A stretch of DNA of 64,000 bases from an uncultured Vicinamibacterales bacterium. GTDB taxonomy: Bacteria > Acidobacteriota > Vicinamibacteria > Vicinamibacterales > JAKQTR01. Positions 23,908-30,504 of this stretch are shown in pieces. Position 1 is the first letter of the stretch. The number at the start of each line of letters is the position of its first letter. Where the stretch lies: the NCBI GenBank assembly GCA_964372095.1, contig CAYJPV010000011.1, positions 14,252-78,251 of the forward strand. Reading direction: 5' to 3'. The notes under the pieces are model-generated. The model did not search any database. It had not been told where the DNA came from and saw only the letters and a list, made by a program, of their open reading frames with translations. The translations under genes and the position numbers were made by a program.

Positions 23908-25296
23908 TTGCCGAAGCCCACACGCACCATCCTCATCATCGACGATGACGAGGGCATGCGCGACACGCTGACGGCGATCCTGCGCCGCGACTACCGCGTG
24001 CTGCGGGCGCCGACCGGCGAAGCGGGCCTCGCGGTGCTGAGCCGCGACACGGTCGACGTCATCCTCCTCGACGTGCGGATGCCCGGCATGAGCGGCTTCG
24101 ACGTGCTGCGTCAGGTCAAGGACACGCAGCGGCTCGTCGAAGTCATCATGATCTCGGCTATCACCGACGTCGAGACGGCCGTGCAGGCCATGAAACTCGG
24201 CGCGTACCACTACATCACCAAAGACTTCGAGTACGACGCGGTGCTCTCGCTGGTGCGCAACGCCTGCGAACGCCTCGACCTCAACCGCAAGGTGCTGACC
24301 CTGTCGGCCCAGGTGGCCGACGAAGGCGGCCGCCCCTTCGTGGTCGGCCCCAGCCAGGCGATGCGGGACATCCTGGACGTGGTCCGCAAGATCGCGGGCC
24401 TGTCGGCGACCGTGCTCATTCTCGGCGAGAGCGGCACCGGCAAAGAACTGCTCGCCCGGATGGTACACCGGGAGTCGGATCGCGCCGACGCCCCGTTCCT
24501 GCCGGTCAACGTCGCGGCGATTCCGTCGGAACTGGTCGAGAGCGCGTTGTTCGGCCACGAACGCGGCGCCTTCACCGGGGCCGTCAAGCAGCAACTCGGC
24601 AAGTTCGAACTCGCGTCCGGCGGCACCCTGTTCCTCGACGAGATCGGCGAGCTGAAGCCCGACGTCCAGGCCAAGCTCCTGCGCGCCATCCAGGAATCGG
24701 AGGTCGAACGAGTGGGCGGCTCCCACCCTATCAAGGTGGACATCCGCCTGATCACGGCTACGAACATCGATCTCGAGCGGGCGGTCCGCGAAGGGCGGTT
24801 CCGCGAAGACCTCTTCTACCGGATCAACGTCATCCCGCTGCGGTTGCCGCCGCTGCGCGACCGCATCGAAGACCTGTCCGAACTGGCCACCTTCTTCCTC
24901 CGGCGCTACAACACCAAGTTCCGCAAGTCGATTCTCGGCATCGAAGACGCGGCCCTGGACGTCCTCAAGGCGTACCGCTGGCCGGGCAACATCCGGGAAC
25001 TCGAGAATCTGCTCGAGCGGATGGTCGCCGTCAGCGACGGCGAGTGGATTACGACCGGCGACCTGCCGTACGAGTACCACCTCGCGCCGCTCGTACGGGC
25101 CGACGCCGTCACGGAAGGTCTGCTCGAACGCGCCTGCGAGACCTTTGAGCGCAACTTCATCATCAAGGCGCTCGAACAGGCCCACTGGAACGTCACGGCC
25201 ACGGCCCGCAACCTCGGCGTGCCGCTCAGCACGATGAAACACAAGATCGAACGCCTCGAAATCAAGGACCTCGCCCGCAAGCTCCGCGGCATCTGA
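23908..25296 (+). CDS. Sigma54-dependent response regulator (NtrC family: REC + AAA+ + Fis-type HTH)
   Basis: TTG 23908 is preceded by GAGGA. ILIIDDDEGMRDTL, LLDVRMPGMSG, GESGTGKELLAR, the GAFTGA loop (ERGAFTGAV), and C-terminal NVTATARNLGVPLSTMKHKI. Confidence 0.9.
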   Translation: MPKPTRTILIIDDDEGMRDTLTAILRRDYRVLRAPTGEAGLAVLSRDTVDVILLDVRMPGMSGFDVLRQVKDTQRLVEVIMISAITDVETAVQAMKLGAYHYITKDFEYDAVLSLVRNACERLDLNRKVLTLSAQVADEGGRPFVVGPSQAMRDILDVVRKIAGLSATVLILGESGTGKELLARMVHRESDRADAPFLPVNVAAIPSELVESALFGHERGAFTGAVKQQLGKFELASGGTLFLDEIGELKPDVQAKLLRAIQESEVERVGGSHPIKVDIRLITATNIDLERAVREGRFREDLFYRINVIPLRLPPLRDRIEDLSELATFFLRRYNTKFRKSILGIEDAALDVLKAYRWPGNIRELENLLERMVAVSDGEWITTGDLPYEYHLAPLVRADAVTEGLLERACETFERNFIIKALEQAHWNVTATARNLGVPLSTMKHKIERLEIKDLARKLRGI

Positions 25297-25393
25297 ACCG
25301 GGGCCGGGGATCGGGGACCACCCCGGTGGGCCCCAGCCGCCCGCACACGTGCGGAACCCGCACACGCGGTTTCCGTAAGCGGCCGCGCGCGTA

Positions 25394-28738: not shown

Positions 28739-30504
28739 GAAGCCTGCGAGTGCTGGTCGCCGTGATGCTGGCCACCGCGGCTGTCGTGCCGCTGGTGGTT
28801 TACGGGGTGGTGTCCGTTTACACGCTGCGCGTCGGCATCCGCCGGACCGTGGTGGAAGGCAACGCCAACGTCGCCCGCCAGGTTGGCGAGCAGGTCCGCC
28901 GCTACATCGCGACCAATCTCCAGATCTTCCAGGCGGTCGCCGTCGATGTCGAAGACACCGGCCTCACGGTCGATCAGCAGGACCGCATCCTGAAGGGTTT
29001 CGTGCTGCGTTTCCCTGAGTTCCGCGAACTGACCCTCTACGACGCCGACGGACGGCAACGGGCATCCAGCCGCGTGGGTGCCGCATCCGCACGCCCTGAC
29101 GCGGCGAAGACCAGGCTCGTGATGGGCGTGACCATGACGCCCGTTACGGTGGACGACGACCTGATGCCGGCCACCATCGTGACGAAGGAAATTCGCGATC
29201 AGGGTACGCTGACGGGCACGCTCGTCGGACAGTTCAGCATCGAAGAGTTGTGGCGGATGGTCGACCGGATTCATATCGGGCGGTACGGGGTCGCGCTGAT
29301 CGTGGGCGCGGGCGGCGAACTGCTGGCCCATGGCAACCCGGACGAACGTCCCCGCGTGGCGCGCAGCGAACGGCTCACCCGCCACCCGGCGGTCGTCAGG
29401 ATCCGCGAGGCAGACAGCGACGATCCCGTCGTGGTGGATGCCATCGCAGCCGACGGCAGCACCATGCTTTCGGTCGGCGCCCGCATTCCGGAACTCGACT
29501 GGATCGTGCTGGTCGAGCAGCCGTACTCGGAGGCGTTCGCCCTGGCGCGCCGCCAGGAACGGGAACTGATCGCCGTCATCAGCCTGGCGCTGCTCATCAT
29601 GATTGTCGGCGGCTTCTACTGGGCGCGGACCCTGATCACGCCCATCGAGGCGCTGACGCAGGCCACGCAGGCACTGGCCGACGGTCACCTGGAAGAGCGC
29701 GTGCAGGTGAACGCCGGCGGAGAACTCGGTCAGCTGGGAACGGCGTTCAACTCGATGGCCGACCGCCTGGTGACCTTGCAGGACGACGTGCGCAAGCAGG
29801 AACGACACGCAATGTTCGGACGTGTCGCGGCCGGCCTCGTCCACGACCTCTCGCACCCGTTCAAGAACGTGCATAACAACTGCAAGCTCATCCTGAAGAT
29901 GTACGCCGACCCCGAGTACCGGGAACTGTTCTCACGCACCGTGGAACGCGAGTTCTCGACGATACGCCGGGTCTTCGAAGACCTGCGCAACATCGCCAAG
30001 CCGATGCCCCTCGAGAAGTTCCCGCTCGATCTCAACAAGCTGGTCGGCGAGACGGCCGAGGCGATGCGGGCCAATGCCGACGTGGCGGGACTGGAGTACG
30101 CGACGAACGTCGGCGCCGCCGAGACGTACGTCGCCGGCGACATGTTCGCGATCGGGCGTGTCTGCCGGAACCTGATTATCAACGCGATCGAAGCGACACC
30201 GCCTCAGGGTCGCGTAACCGTCTCGACCGGACTGGGCCAGGGCCGGGCGCGGATCGTCGTCGCCGACACCGGCTGCGGGATTCCGCCCGAACGCCTCGAG
30301 ACGCTGTTCGAGGACTTCTCGACGACCAAGCGGCAGGGACTGGGCCTCGGACTGGCCATCTCACGGAAGATCGTCGAGCAACTGGGTGGGACGATCGCGG
30401 CGGCCAGCGCGCCCGGTACGGGCACGGTGTTCACGGTGGAGTTCCCGGCGGTGGAGCGGCCTCGAACGTCGAGGGAAATCCCGGCGGATGGAGTCGGCGC
30501 GTAA
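28735..30504 (+). CDS. Sensor histidine kinase (TM - periplasmic Cache-like domain - TM - HAMP - HisKA - HATPase)
   Basis: GTG 28735 overlaps the SBP stop (GGTGA) and is preceded by GGAGAG. HAMP ALADGHLEERV ... FNSMADRL. H-box AAGLVHDLSHPF. N box NLIINAIEAT. G boxes DTGCGIP and [13 protein letters not shown]. Confidence 0.9.
   Translation: MRSLRVLVAVMLATAAVVPLVVYGVVSVYTLRVGIRRTVVEGNANVARQVGEQVRRYIATNLQIFQAVAVDVEDTGLTVDQQDRILKGFVLRFPEFRELTLYDADGRQRASSRVGAASARPDAAKTRLVMGVTMTPVTVDDDLMPATIVTKEIRDQGTLTGTLVGQFSIEELWRMVDRIHIGRYGVALIVGAGGELLAHGNPDERPRVARSERLTRHPAVVRIREADSDDPVVVDAIAADGSTMLSVGARIPELDWIVLVEQPYSEAFALARRQERELIAVISLALLIMIVGGFYWARTLITPIEALTQATQALADGHLEERVQVNAGGELGQLGTAFNSMADRLVTLQDDVRKQERHAMFGRVAAGLVHDLSHPFKNVHNNCKLILKMYADPEYRELFSRTVEREFSTIRRVFEDLRNIAKPMPLEKFPLDLNKLVGETAEAMRANADVAGLEYATNVGAAETYVAGDMFAIGRVCRNLIINAIEATPPQGRVTVSTGLGQGRARIVVADTGCGIPPERLETLFEDFSTTKRQGLGLGLAISRKIVEQLGGTIAAASAPGTGTVFTVEFPAVERPRTSREIPADGVGA

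Follow-up and report, generated by a model that had tools for sequence, protein, structure and literature searches.

What does a gene cassette do that joins a radical SAM (rSAM) enzyme to a 32-residue peptide and to the genes of a sensing pathway? Within the window (the whole stretch of 64,000 nucleotides that was analysed), the elements follow one another as an NtrC-type activator, a -24/-12 promoter, an RRE-rSAM-SPASM enzyme, a 32-aa ORF, a family-5 lipoprotein, a dCache kinase and a hairpin. A first-pass annotation had proposed that these form a RiPP or peptide-signal circuit and had placed the activator, promoter, rSAM gene, small ORF, binding protein, kinase and hairpin on the sequence. 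All five genes, together with the promoter and the hairpin, were found at those positions (Table 1).

Table 1. Coordinates of the cassette features within the window.
Feature	Position	Strand	Remarks
NtrC/AtoC-family sigma-54 activator	23908..25296	+	TTG start; receiver, AAA+ with GAFTGA, HTH_8
Candidate activator binding site	25394..25442		palindrome TTGCAGTTTCTGCAA at 25394-25408, imperfect inverted partner at 25424-25442
Putative sigma-54 (-24/-12) promoter	25606..25621	+	TGGAACGGCGGTTGCA, 27 nt ahead of the rSAM start codon
Probable radical SAM peptide maturase	25649..27070	+	RRE-like N-domain (about residues 1-90), rSAM core, SPASM C-terminus
Putative precursor peptide, 32 aa	27072..27170	+	MRIAVVKKAATVRAESLPYCPWLVTIPPVHTK; leader MRIAVVKKA..., invariant Cys20, core CPWLVTIPPVHTK
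Family-5 solute-binding lipoprotein	27134..28738 (or from TTG 27128)	+	PF00496, 176 bits; start overlaps the peptide ORF
Membrane histidine kinase	28735..30504	+	periplasmic dCache_1, HAMP, kinase core (HATPase_c)
GC-rich hairpin	about 30505..30554		between the convergent kinase gene and an HU-like gene

The domains assigned to the rSAM enzyme at first pass were recovered by profile searches in part: PF04055 matches at 65.7 bits, while the Pfam SPASM and PqqD models do not match. Each of 33 homologues keeps the Cys residues of CxxxCxxC (C103/C107/C110) and seven C-terminal ones that follow a SPASM pattern. This Cys pattern and the alignment to CteB point to a SPASM domain, whereas the fold predicted for the N-domain, beta-beta-beta-alpha-alpha-alpha in the AF2 model, suggests an RRE. 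CteB, TigE and SuiB are the best Foldseek matches of the predicted structure, and CteB is also the best sequence match in the PDB (phmmer, 1.2e-17). The best NCBIfam matches are all peptide maturases. Top among the named families is TIGR04280, “geopeptide radical SAM maturase”, with 242 bits against a curated cut-off of 400; PapB (118 vs 340), SCIFF maturase (94 vs 425) and QhpD (106 vs 453) also score below their cut-offs.

The first-pass annotation had itself named clustering with anaerobic sulfatase maturases as evidence against its reading; an enzyme of the sulfatase-maturase type, or a maturase of a larger protein, would leave the small ORF as a product of chance. SPASM enzymes do include anSME, and TIGR03942 gives a weak match. 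That match reaches only 60 bits against a cut-off of 349, however, no sulfatase gene is found near the cassette, and anSME lacks an N-terminal RRE-like domain such as the one found here. Moreover, the small ORF is kept in 36 loci and 415 database entries. The comparative data thus already refute this explanation, to which we assign virtually no probability.

The peptide ORF begins 1 nt after the rSAM stop codon, behind AAGGAG. Its earlier description as “unannotated” needs correction, as public gene calls already hold the exact 32-aa product; it is recorded on at least 19 contigs, as “hypothetical protein” where it is named at all. None of 31 tested peptides matches any NCBIfam model. In the peptides of the 36 loci the leader, MKIxV(V/I)KK, is conserved, a Cys (as a rule within CPW) never varies, and the tail is variable. 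A good ribosome-binding site precedes these ORFs, and their codon-position entropy and substitution pattern are of the coding type. The 415 database entries are unnamed peptides of the same type; CPW occurs in 118 of the best 120, and the core tail is hypervariable. The fifth residue after the Cys is Asp or Glu in most peptides but Thr in that of the window. The enzyme probably modifies this peptide: its RRE would bind the MK(I)xV(V/I)KK leader, and the rSAM/SPASM core would modify the core peptide at or from the Cys. By analogy with the nearest characterised relatives (CteB, PapB and QhpD), the product is most likely an intramolecular Cys thioether formed at or from this invariant residue.

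The cassette is a single-copy, syntenic and vertically inherited core locus across the order Vicinamibacterales. Its place in the chromosome is fixed, with E3/TPR genes on one side and an HU gene on the other. In 40 of 40 related loci the order activator, rSAM gene, gap, binding protein, kinase is found wherever the contig is long enough. The activator gene lies upstream of the rSAM gene in 38 loci, the remaining 2 contigs beginning at the rSAM gene itself; the sigma-54 promoter is present in all 40 and the small peptide ORF in 36. Promoter, ORF and gene order recur in 40 independent loci, and the arrangement is therefore beyond chance. Relatives with 36-40% identical enzymes also encode an SBP5 protein, a dCache kinase, a sigma-54 activator and an MK(I/L)xV(V/I)KKG...C peptide, in shuffled gene order. 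All sampled distant relatives score best against TIGR04280 (240-345 bits), and none reaches the cut-off of 400. The small ORF and the sensor genes thus co-occur with the maturase in the 40 loci and in rearranged relatives alike, as expected at first pass, and the retention of enzyme, peptide and promoter together argues for a RiPP-type pair under sigma-54 control.

Within the 64 kb, TGGAAC-N5-TTGCA is matched exactly only by the promoter TGGAACGGCGGTTGCA. In each of the 40 loci the rSAM gene is preceded by a GG-N10-GC element that reads yGGAAy-N5-TTGCA, and the same type is found in three distant cassettes (L048, L050 and L051). A GGAG lies 11 nt ahead of the rSAM ATG. The promoter would drive an operon that extends from the rSAM gene to the kinase gene, with the activator gene outside it and directly upstream. 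The palindrome TTGCAGTTTCTGCAA, some 200 bp upstream of the promoter, is a candidate binding site for the activator. In the clade of the window, GCAG-N3-CTGC recurs roughly between -160 and -270, counted from the start codon; the other clade carries TTGGCC-N-GGCCAA at about -250 to -350 instead. At the far end of the operon, the hairpin (-40.4 kcal/mol, z = -4.06, with 0 of 200 shuffles as stable) is likely a bidirectional terminator, which a simple terminator scan does not list because it has no T-run.

The activator matches Response_reg, Sigma54_activat, AAA_lid and HTH_8 in Pfam, contains GAFTGA in its translation and has AtoC as its best NCBIfam match (443 bits). The kinase, whose GTG overlaps the TGA of the binding-protein gene (GTGA), is best matched by AtoS and ZraS. 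The exact products of both genes are in public records. The best-match families AtoS and AtoC are cognate, in keeping with the two-component pair that had been proposed, and we infer that the kinase phosphorylates the adjacent activator.

The start of the lipoprotein gene is less certain than first annotated: TTG 27128 is possible, but so is ATG 27134. Both lie within the peptide ORF and are the only in-frame starts that leave a full signal peptide ahead of the lipobox Cys (codon 27305-27307); the in-frame GTGs at 27284 and 27290 would give just ~6-8 residues. Public gene calls begin at 27398, so that the signal peptide is lost. A lipobox-like motif ending in Cys is kept in nearly all loci. 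The cassette encodes no ABC permease or ATPase partner for the binding protein. The nearest solved relatives, NikA, AgaA and HbpA, are found only at E about 1e-18; their ligands are nickel-chelates, opines and glutathione rather than long peptides, which counts against a receptor for the peptide.

The best named relatives are NikA, CntA and AgaA, that is, nickel/metallophore and opine binders. The peptide might accordingly be a secreted metallophore or other shared good that binds a metal or nutrient outside the cell and re-enters the periplasm, in some lineages via a TonB-dependent receptor; re-uptake would be sensed through the NikA-like binding protein and the kinase and would raise production, as for methanobactin or pyoverdine. 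Four distant cassettes have a TonB-dependent receptor added inside them, which fits a ligand from outside, on this reading as on that of a peptide signal. In methanobactin operons (MbnA/B/C, MbnT), too, a TonB-dependent transporter accompanies the RiPP precursor, and some genomes add a periplasmic binding protein without an adjacent ABC permease (PMC3621798). On the other hand, no TonB-dependent receptor occurs within the window or in the flanks of the 40 loci, and neither metal-responsive regulators nor Fur boxes nor ECF sigma/anti-sigma pairs were seen. The peptide tail is hypervariable, and the core has a single Cys and no recurring His/Cys/Asp ligand set; a Cys turned into a thioether could not bind metal. 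We consider a metallophore or other shared good unlikely.

What the receptor recognises can be approached from the way in which the parts of the cassette diverge. Partial Mantel tests were carried out on 19 related loci, whose shared ancestry makes the significance overstated. With the activator controlled, the divergence of the peptide core correlates with that of the binding protein at r = 0.55 and with that of the periplasmic kinase domain at r = 0.54 (p = 0.001 for each, overstated as above); with the cytoplasmic half of the same kinase controlled, the values are 0.53 and 0.52, each at p = 0.0002. When the controls are reversed, the correlations are ~0. Neither the enzyme nor the activator nor the cytoplasmic kinase half is tracked by core divergence, whereas leader divergence tracks the enzyme (r = 0.40-0.42 with the enzyme core). 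Between loci L010 and L040, the activator and the cytoplasmic half of the kinase are each 98% identical and the enzyme 90%, the periplasmic half of the kinase 75% and the binding protein 69%. The binding protein and the sensor domain are the fastest-evolving parts of the cassette, a caveat on the co-variation. Diversifying selection was not detected, gene-wide dN/dS being <1 everywhere with dS near saturation. Core, binding protein and sensor domain nevertheless appear to diversify together as in pherotype systems, which agrees with the earlier proposal that the binding protein might serve as the product's receptor in an autoinducing loop.

Siderophores also show receptor-ligand co-diversification, which counts for a metallophore. 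The co-variation of peptide and lipoprotein fits immunity as well as sensing, and the peptide might be a toxin, with the lipoprotein as a sequestering, NisI-like immunity protein and the two-component system sensing the toxin on the nisin model. Antimicrobial activity is common among rSAM-SPASM products (sactipeptides), and in lantibiotic clusters lipoprotein immunity is paired with an autoinducing two-component system. Such an autoinduced bacteriocin is nevertheless very unlikely. Clusters of this kind typically carry an ABC exporter/protease and an ABC immunity transporter, both lacking here, and the locus belongs to the single-copy, syntenic core of an order instead of being patchy and accessory. 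Co-variation with the sensor domain (r = 0.70) and translational coupling to the kinase both suggest that the binding protein is a co-receptor.

The first-pass annotation had remarked on the lack of an exporter or leader protease. No exporter, leader peptidase or peptide signal sequence was found in the window cassette, the 40 loci or the distant cassettes examined. This weighs against a secreted signal and would suit a peptide that acts inside the cell, as a cofactor precursor of the PQQ or mycofactocin kind or as a regulator, since export would then be unnecessary; the binding protein and kinase would read an unrelated signal from outside, for example oligopeptides in the environment. Family-5 binding proteins commonly take nutrient peptides, and cofactor pathways are often inherited vertically as core loci, as this cassette is, rather than as sporadic clusters. 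However, the core of a cofactor precursor should be conserved, whereas the tail here is hypervariable; linked tailoring or cofactor-dependent enzymes are absent; and the core diverges in step with the binding protein and sensor domain but not with the enzyme or cytoplasmic proteins. An intracellular role is therefore improbable in our judgement.

We favour, by a modest degree of confidence, a self-regulated RiPP-type signalling system, in which the modified peptide is sensed in the periplasm by its own receptor with positive feedback. The lipoprotein receptor, kinase and activator most likely sense the cassette's own peptide and turn the cassette on, as the patterns of sequence divergence suggest. 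The product would leave the cytoplasm via a route encoded outside the cassette. The lipoprotein would bind the peptide core in the periplasm and dock on the kinase at its dCache domain, much like the pairs LuxP/LuxQ and AioX/AioS; the kinase would phosphorylate the activator, and this, bound to the upstream palindrome, would open the sigma-54 promoter. Because the receptor and kinase genes lie in the induced operon, the result would be positive feedback, i.e. autoinduction. If this is true, the signal could reflect cell density, the identity of kin or the re-uptake of a shared good.

The cassette is assembled from known modules, and the nearest named family, TIGR04280, is itself uncharacterised. 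This family (a hypothetical equivalog) gives the top score and full-length similarity including the N-terminal domain, but its cut-off is missed; the comparison was made by enzyme and peptide models. Experimental work on a geopeptide maturase was not found in the literature. CteB (SCIFF/sactionine, PDB 5WGG/5WHY), PapB (ranthipeptide) and QhpD share the RRE, the rSAM core and a SPASM domain with auxiliary-cluster cysteines; identity is only 14-19%, however, their family cut-offs are unmet, and the substrate here has one Cys, not six. PapB and QhpD make Cys-Asp/Glu links, which the invariant Cys with, mostly, Asp or Glu five residues on recalls.

Of the systems that couple a peptide to its detection, methanobactin operons resemble the distant cassettes L048, L051 and L054, but MbnBC is not an rSAM enzyme, and control by ECF sigma/anti-sigma factors, a MATE exporter and a copper-binding chemotype set them apart. 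Nisin and subtilin (NisRK, SpaRK) and the streptococcal RaS-RiPPs under Rgg/SHP are also modified ribosomal peptides with sensing-coupled production (in part PMC13361665). These systems belong to monoderm Firmicutes and include exporters and proteases; sensing is direct, through a kinase or, once Opp has imported the peptide, through cytoplasmic Rgg. Sigma-54 and binding-protein co-receptors are not known in any of them.

In LuxP/LuxQ (AI-2) and TorT/TorS, a binding protein takes up the ligand on behalf of a kinase whose periplasmic domain is of the double-PAS/dCache type. Binding-protein family, ligand class and downstream pathway differ, and the link proposed here comes from co-variation. 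In AioXSR, a three-component sensor of arsenite, a periplasmic binding protein without a transporter, a kinase and an AtoC-family activator act on an RpoN promoter (PMC5908839). AioX belongs to another binding-protein family and has an oxyanion ligand, and the targets encode a redox enzyme, not ligand biosynthesis, so that there is no autoinduction. As a precedent for a binding protein, a kinase and an AtoC-type activator at an RpoN promoter, AioXSR nonetheless supports the circuit proposed here.

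The cassette consists of five genes, encoding a sigma-54 activator, a radical SAM (rSAM) enzyme, a 32-aa peptide, a family-5 binding lipoprotein and a dCache kinase, and there is no transporter, protease or sulfatase inside it. Translations, Pfam matches and positions were re-read and agree with the gene set, order and coordinates of the first-pass annotation, and public gene callers give exactly the same products for the activator, enzyme, peptide and kinase. The kinase gene is followed by a hairpin (z = -4.06 versus shuffles). One genome per species was scanned, which yielded 40 related loci; nearly all of them carry the label Vicinamibacterales or Acidobacteriota, and enzyme identity is 52-68%. 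The order activator, enzyme, gap, binding protein, kinase is kept in every one of these loci with enough sequence, and the neighbourhood, between E2/E3 and HU, is constant. By these comparisons the cassette is a core locus inherited vertically, and no sporadic cluster. When plasmids were searched with the enzyme by tblastn, no match exceeded 28% identity and no context was informative.

The neighbouring HU/IHF-type gene (PF00216) is convergent to the kinase gene and syntenic in all related loci. Sigma-54 promoters are often helped by IHF/HU-type proteins; the link to the cassette may be simply conserved housekeeping synteny. The window is also rich in peptidases (an M24 aminopeptidase P-like enzyme, an M1 enzyme, two M14 carboxypeptidases and an S9 prolyl oligopeptidase) and carries an MFS_3 (EntS-like "secretion effector") transporter. 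Near the cassette there is a second signalling pair, a response regulator and a hybrid kinase.

Features of the window, of related Vicinamibacterales loci and of distant cassettes with enzymes 36-40% identical (L045-L054)
Sequence	Feature	Position	Strand	Remarks
Window	Peptidases and MFS_3 transporter	16006-17406, 17454-19625, 31416-34097, 43219-45279 (-), 61572-63194 (-), 12751-14145		
Window	Left flank: TPR gene, E3 and E2 genes of 2-oxoacid dehydrogenase		minus	
Window	Activator, 462-aa response regulator	23908-25296		Receiver, sigma-54 AAA+ (GAFTGA), HTH_8
Window	Palindrome TTGCAGTTTCTGCAA	25394-25408		Within 350-bp spacer, with imperfect inverted partner
Window	Sigma-54 promoter TGGAACGGCGGTTGCA	25606-25621		Predicted
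Window	Radical SAM enzyme, 473 aa	25649-27070		PF04055
Window	Precursor peptide MRIAVVKKAATVRAESLPYCPWLVTIPPVHTK	27072-27170		Starts 1 nt past enzyme stop, behind AAGGAG
Window	Right flank: HU-type gene	30587-30886	minus	Then QueF and M14 peptidase
Window	Second pair: response regulator	34120-35172	minus	HD-GYP-type HD_5 domain
Window	Second pair: hybrid kinase, 1127 aa	35580-38963	minus	dCache_1, two receiver stretches
Window	One-mismatch promoter match TGGAAGGCCAGTTGCA	61831-61846	minus	Inside M14 peptidase ORF 61572-63194
Related loci	Cys-less small ORF	L010 9447-9533; L015 9526-9615; L017 9458-9544; L025 9433-9522; L030 9429-9512; L034 961-1050; L040 9454-9540		Also L011, L014, L016, L018, L039
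Related loci	Tandem Cys-precursor genes	L010 9579-9674, 9717-9812		Also L011, L025, L034, L040
L045	Enzyme, peptide, binding lipoprotein			
L047	Enzyme, dCache kinase directly after	3187-4554		Position: M29 aminopeptidase
L048	Sigma-54 activator, TonB-dependent receptor, enzyme, peptide, binding protein, kinase	3845-5371		Position: TonB-dependent receptor
L050	TonB-dependent receptor, enzyme (end of contig)	1444-3480		Position: TonB-dependent receptor
L051	Enzyme, peptide, binding protein, kinase; divergent: activator, TonB-dependent receptor	3514-5673	minus	Position and strand: TonB-dependent receptor
L054	Kinase, TonB-dependent receptor, binding protein, peptide, enzyme	1863-3929		Position: TonB-dependent receptor

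The enzyme belongs to the radical SAM superfamily (65.7 bits, threshold 29.5), and the cysteines of its CxxxCxxC motif, C103, C107 and C110, are unchanged in 33 homologues. SPASM domains, which hold auxiliary Fe-S clusters, have the pattern C-x(9-15)-G-x4-C ... CxxCx5CxxxC ... C. These seven cysteines can be read in the enzyme (CELYRQHSHTIGPDGTLFAC ... CGDCAFIPVCGGGC ... C450), where C364, C383, C421, C424, C430, C434 and C450 are invariant among the 33 homologues, and residues 373-440 align with the SPASM region of CteB. Membership rests on this motif and alignment, because a Pfam scan of the isolated C-terminal segment with all families (E up to 10) gave no match, to the SPASM model or any other. 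The isolated N-terminal segment gave no match to the PqqD model in a Pfam scan. In the AF2 model (pLDDT about 70-88 over the N-domain, mean 72 overall), the first 90 residues form strands 7-11, 17-21 and 26-30, followed by helices 32-44, 53-64 and 72-87. This predicted three-strand, three-helix arrangement resembles that of RiPP recognition elements (RREs), PqqD-like winged-helix domains, and may bind the leader. Full-length Foldseek alignments cover 476-504 columns with CteB, TigE and SuiB, all of which contain an RRE; thioether-forming CteB is the nearest solved structure by sequence and predicted fold, with TigE and SuiB next.

The best curated family is the uncharacterised TIGR04280, "geopeptide radical SAM maturase", at 242.1 bits (below its cut-off of 400), and the next-best NCBIfam models, CefB, TIGR04463, FlmE/OhkG, PapB, QhpD and the SCIFF maturase, are all peptide maturases. 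The enzyme falls below the cut-offs for both the ranthipeptide maturase PapB (NF047865, 118.5 against 340 bits) and the SCIFF maturase (TIGR03974, 93.9 against 425 bits), whose precursors are multi-Cys, whereas that of the cassette has a single Cys. The first-pass annotation had named a sulfatase-type maturase beside sulfatase genes as the finding that would speak against it. This was looked for, and the anaerobic sulfatase maturase reading (TIGR03942) is excluded by a score of 60.4 bits versus 349 and by neighbours (TPR, E3, E2, HU, QueF, M14 peptidase) that include no sulfatase.

The small ORF proposed at first pass behind the enzyme gene is a real gene, as it recurs in 36 loci with a shared leader and coding-type variability. 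In each of these loci the enzyme gene is followed by an ORF of 30-34 codons that starts with ATG and has a good RBS, and nucleotide variability peaks at third codon positions and is least at second ones (1.18 versus 0.49 bits). The products share an N-terminal leader, MK(I/V/L)x(V/I)(V/I)KK, and a C-terminal core with one invariant Cys about 12-14 residues before the end, after which Pro-Trp and then two hydrophobic residues are usual. A conserved leader, a variable core and a precursor gene abutting the enzyme gene, the general plan of RiPP cassettes, are thus found in 36 loci. A profile search brought up 415 proteins 29-35 aa long, named at most "hypothetical protein"; among the best-scoring 120 of these 415, CPW is present in 118 and Asp or Glu at Cys+5 in 117, and the tail past Cys+5 is hypervariable. 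NCBIfam scans with E up to 10, in which HMMER filters may conceal very weak matches, assigned no family to the window peptide, 28 peptides of related loci or 2 of distant cassettes. The model for geopeptide-type precursors, which we take to be TIGR04229, matched none of these 31 peptides.

Given the peptide-maturase relatives, the likeness to CteB, the RRE-like N-domain and the invariant Cys, a Cys-centred thioether is the best guess for the chemistry, and it remains a guess. The window peptide has Thr at Cys+5, and PW is replaced by AF, NV or DV in some relatives.

Third-position G+C of the window's peptide gene is 0.62, versus 0.85-0.90 in its neighbours; related peptide genes average 0.81. 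Tandem, slightly different copies of the Cys-precursor gene occur in five related loci. In twelve related loci a further small ORF, devoid of Cys, lies between the enzyme and Cys-peptide genes; it has the form M..KK..KK.G(T/I)LRPWLVDVxV(D/E)xLR and lacks the MKIxVIKK leader, and none is found in the window. It has PW(L/V)VDV in common with the local Cys-peptide core (in locus L015, CPWVVDVPP versus RPWLVDVPV), and could encode an unmodifiable competitor or a second substrate. The rSAM enzyme WprB crosslinks Arg-Trp (PMC11851443).

The activator has the make-up of an NtrC/AtoC enhancer-binding protein (PF00072, PF00158 at 232 bits, PF02954, GAFTGA in the translation), with AtoC as its best curated family. 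Sigma-54 promoters are marked by GG and GC 10 nt apart in a TGGCAC-N5-TTGCW context, conserved 5' of the regulated gene. The -24/-12 promoter claimed at first pass stands up as a sequence element: it is the sole exact match to TGGAAC-N5-TTGCA in the 64 kb, and an equivalent yGGAAy-N5-TTGCA lies 5' of the enzyme gene in 40/40 loci. A GGAG is found 11 nt 5' of the enzyme ATG. About 160-270 bp 5' of the start codon, loci of the window's clade have a GCAG-N3-CTGC palindrome, and those of the other clade TTGGCC-N-GGCCAA palindromes in its place; these clade-specific palindromes would fit a candidate activator site that co-evolves with the activator. The one-mismatch match on the minus strand was rejected as a second promoter, being within an ORF and at chance level (0.57 expected per window).

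The binding protein (PF00496, 176 bits) has a lipoprotein signal, ...AVCVLAAGC in the window, with similar Cys-ending motifs in nearly all homologous loci. The kinase is of dCache_1-HAMP-HATPase type, and its GTG start overlaps the binding-protein stop (GTGA). No transporter gene, ABC permease and ATPase included, is found in the cassette or the 40 loci. Binding-protein-dependent kinases of the LuxPQ, TorTS and AioXS type share this gene plan, in which a periplasmic-sensor kinase is encoded together with an orphan periplasmic binding protein and with neither ABC permease nor ATPase; ligand binding and kinase control are predicted for the cassette. The lipoprotein might also confer immunity to a bacteriocin made by the cassette, which we consider very improbable.

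On its 5' side the binding-protein frame continues without a stop into the peptide gene (27128-27398). Of the in-frame starts, only TTG 27128 and ATG 27134, both within the peptide's Tyr-Cys-Pro-Trp codons, give a full signal peptide. Public gene calls start at 27398, so the lipoprotein signal is lost from them. The overlap frame encodes a stretch resembling (A/T)PWEGADSRLAR that is conserved in several loci of the window's clade, which suggests translation of this frame. Between the two genes, no structured RNA or attenuator was detected (27160-27270 folds no better than shuffles, z = -0.54), and a simple terminator scan gave nothing relevant.

Whether the sensor reads the peptide was examined by co-variation in a small sample, the 19 loci whose genes are complete. 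Pairwise identity averages 72% for the activator, 62% for the cytoplasmic half of the kinase, 60% for the enzyme, 47% for the periplasmic half of the kinase and 37% for the binding protein. In partial Mantel tests with the activator as control, which overstate significance when sequences share kinship, peptide-core distance is correlated with that of the binding protein (r = 0.55, p = 0.001) and of the kinase periplasmic half (r = 0.54, p = 0.001). These correlations are 0.52-0.62 when the kinase cytoplasmic half or the enzyme is the control, and nothing is left in the reverse controls (-0.11 to 0.12). Several alternative covariates were used as controls because two-clade clustering for stratified permutation split off only locus L013. 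Leader distance tracks the enzyme core (0.40-0.42), and the binding protein tracks the kinase periplasmic half (r = 0.70). The closest pair of loci, L010 and L040, are 98% identical in activator and kinase cytoplasmic half and 90% in enzyme, and 75% in kinase periplasmic half and 69% in binding protein. Three loci (L015, L017, L030) have activators nearest those of CAFIIE-type loci and binding proteins nearest one another, and the latter grouping agrees with their CPW..D.P cores. Pairwise dN/dS gave no sign of positive selection, being below 1 in all segments with dS near saturation, and the claim is therefore only that the binding protein and sensor domain evolve faster.

The best-supported model, which we hold to be probable on balance, is an autoinduction loop, in which the modified peptide would be sensed in the periplasm by its own lipoprotein and kinase, and the activator would then fire the sigma-54 promoter. 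Export is its weakest link, because no cassette gene explains peptide exit or leader loss. Neither an exporter nor a leader peptidase was found in the cassette, the 40 loci or the distant cassettes examined, nor was the dedicated export and processing route of quorum-sensing systems. The M14 carboxypeptidase 3' of the cassette was left out as a processing enzyme, because HU and QueF intervene and the synteny is seen only in the window's clade. An intracellular product, with the sensor reading an unrelated external cue, would call for no exporter; set beside the co-variation of core and sensor, it seems unlikely.

Beyond Vicinamibacterales, the enzyme was searched against 1.8 billion cluster representatives, among which its own family has one full-length representative. 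Relatives are 30-45% identical, with 511 clusters at E up to 1e-30. For 17 sampled relatives with a curated match at the thresholds used, TIGR04280 was best, below its cut-off; three relatives were unmatched. Peptides of the distant cassettes have an MK(I/L)xV(V/I)KKG leader, Cys or CC and a short aromatic-containing tail (e.g. MKLVVVKKGSRKENAKPTKCQAFVSW, MKITVIKKGTRKQAPKPVACKPVLY), and sigma-54-type promoters recur there (e.g. TGGCAC-N5-TTGCA in L048). The retention of these parts despite rearrangement argues for a functional unit. In L047, an M29 aminopeptidase directly follows the enzyme and kinase, and could be a lead for leader trimming.

Four distant cassettes encode TonB-dependent receptors, 23-31% identical among themselves; none is found in the window or the flanks of the 40 Vicinamibacterales loci. 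Their presence argues for a ligand from outside the cell. Such a ligand could be a shared good with uptake-coupled signalling, for which methanobactin is the model (PMC3621798), a reading that we judge improbable. A doubtful but wider proposal, extending the autoinduction loop, is a family of diderm peptide pheromones: the rSAM-crosslinked peptide would be released and re-enter the periplasm, in some lineages through a TonB-dependent receptor, the lipoprotein/dCache-kinase pair would drive sigma-54 autoinduction, and peptide and receptor would co-diversify into pherotypes.

Literature searches found no publication in the library covered that describes the cassette or the geopeptide family. The modules are individually of known kinds. 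Their combination appears not to have been described: a family of single-Cys precursors occurs with an enzyme of RRE-like, rSAM and SPASM domains, with an orphan family-5 lipoprotein and a dCache kinase, and under sigma-54 control. To judge from the genomes compared, this combination is fixed across the order and recurs elsewhere. An order-wide locus with thousands of metagenome homologues unites peptide, rSAM modifier and three-part sensor in one operon, and unrelated lineages reuse the same parts in differing gene orders. It also gives a function-level hypothesis for a clade of enzymes, "geopeptide maturase-like", that is uncharacterised. The Acidobacteriota belong to the most abundant bacteria of soils, to our knowledge almost nothing is known of their cell-cell signalling, and autoinduction by peptides is regarded as a Gram-positive trait. 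If the pheromone proposal is true, a widespread peptide quorum-sensing or kin-recognition system exists outside Gram-positives, in a dominant soil order. If the loop is real, communication or kin discrimination among uncultured soil bacteria could be studied with a defined ligand and its receptor. In that case rSAM chemistry would also gain a new class of precursors, marked by one invariant Cys that is often part of CPW, and the cassette would provide a compact sigma-54 switch inducible by peptide. For the regulatory half of the loop there is a precise experimental precedent in AioX/AioS/AioR, in which a binding protein and kinase work with an AtoC-type activator at an RpoN promoter (PMC5908839).
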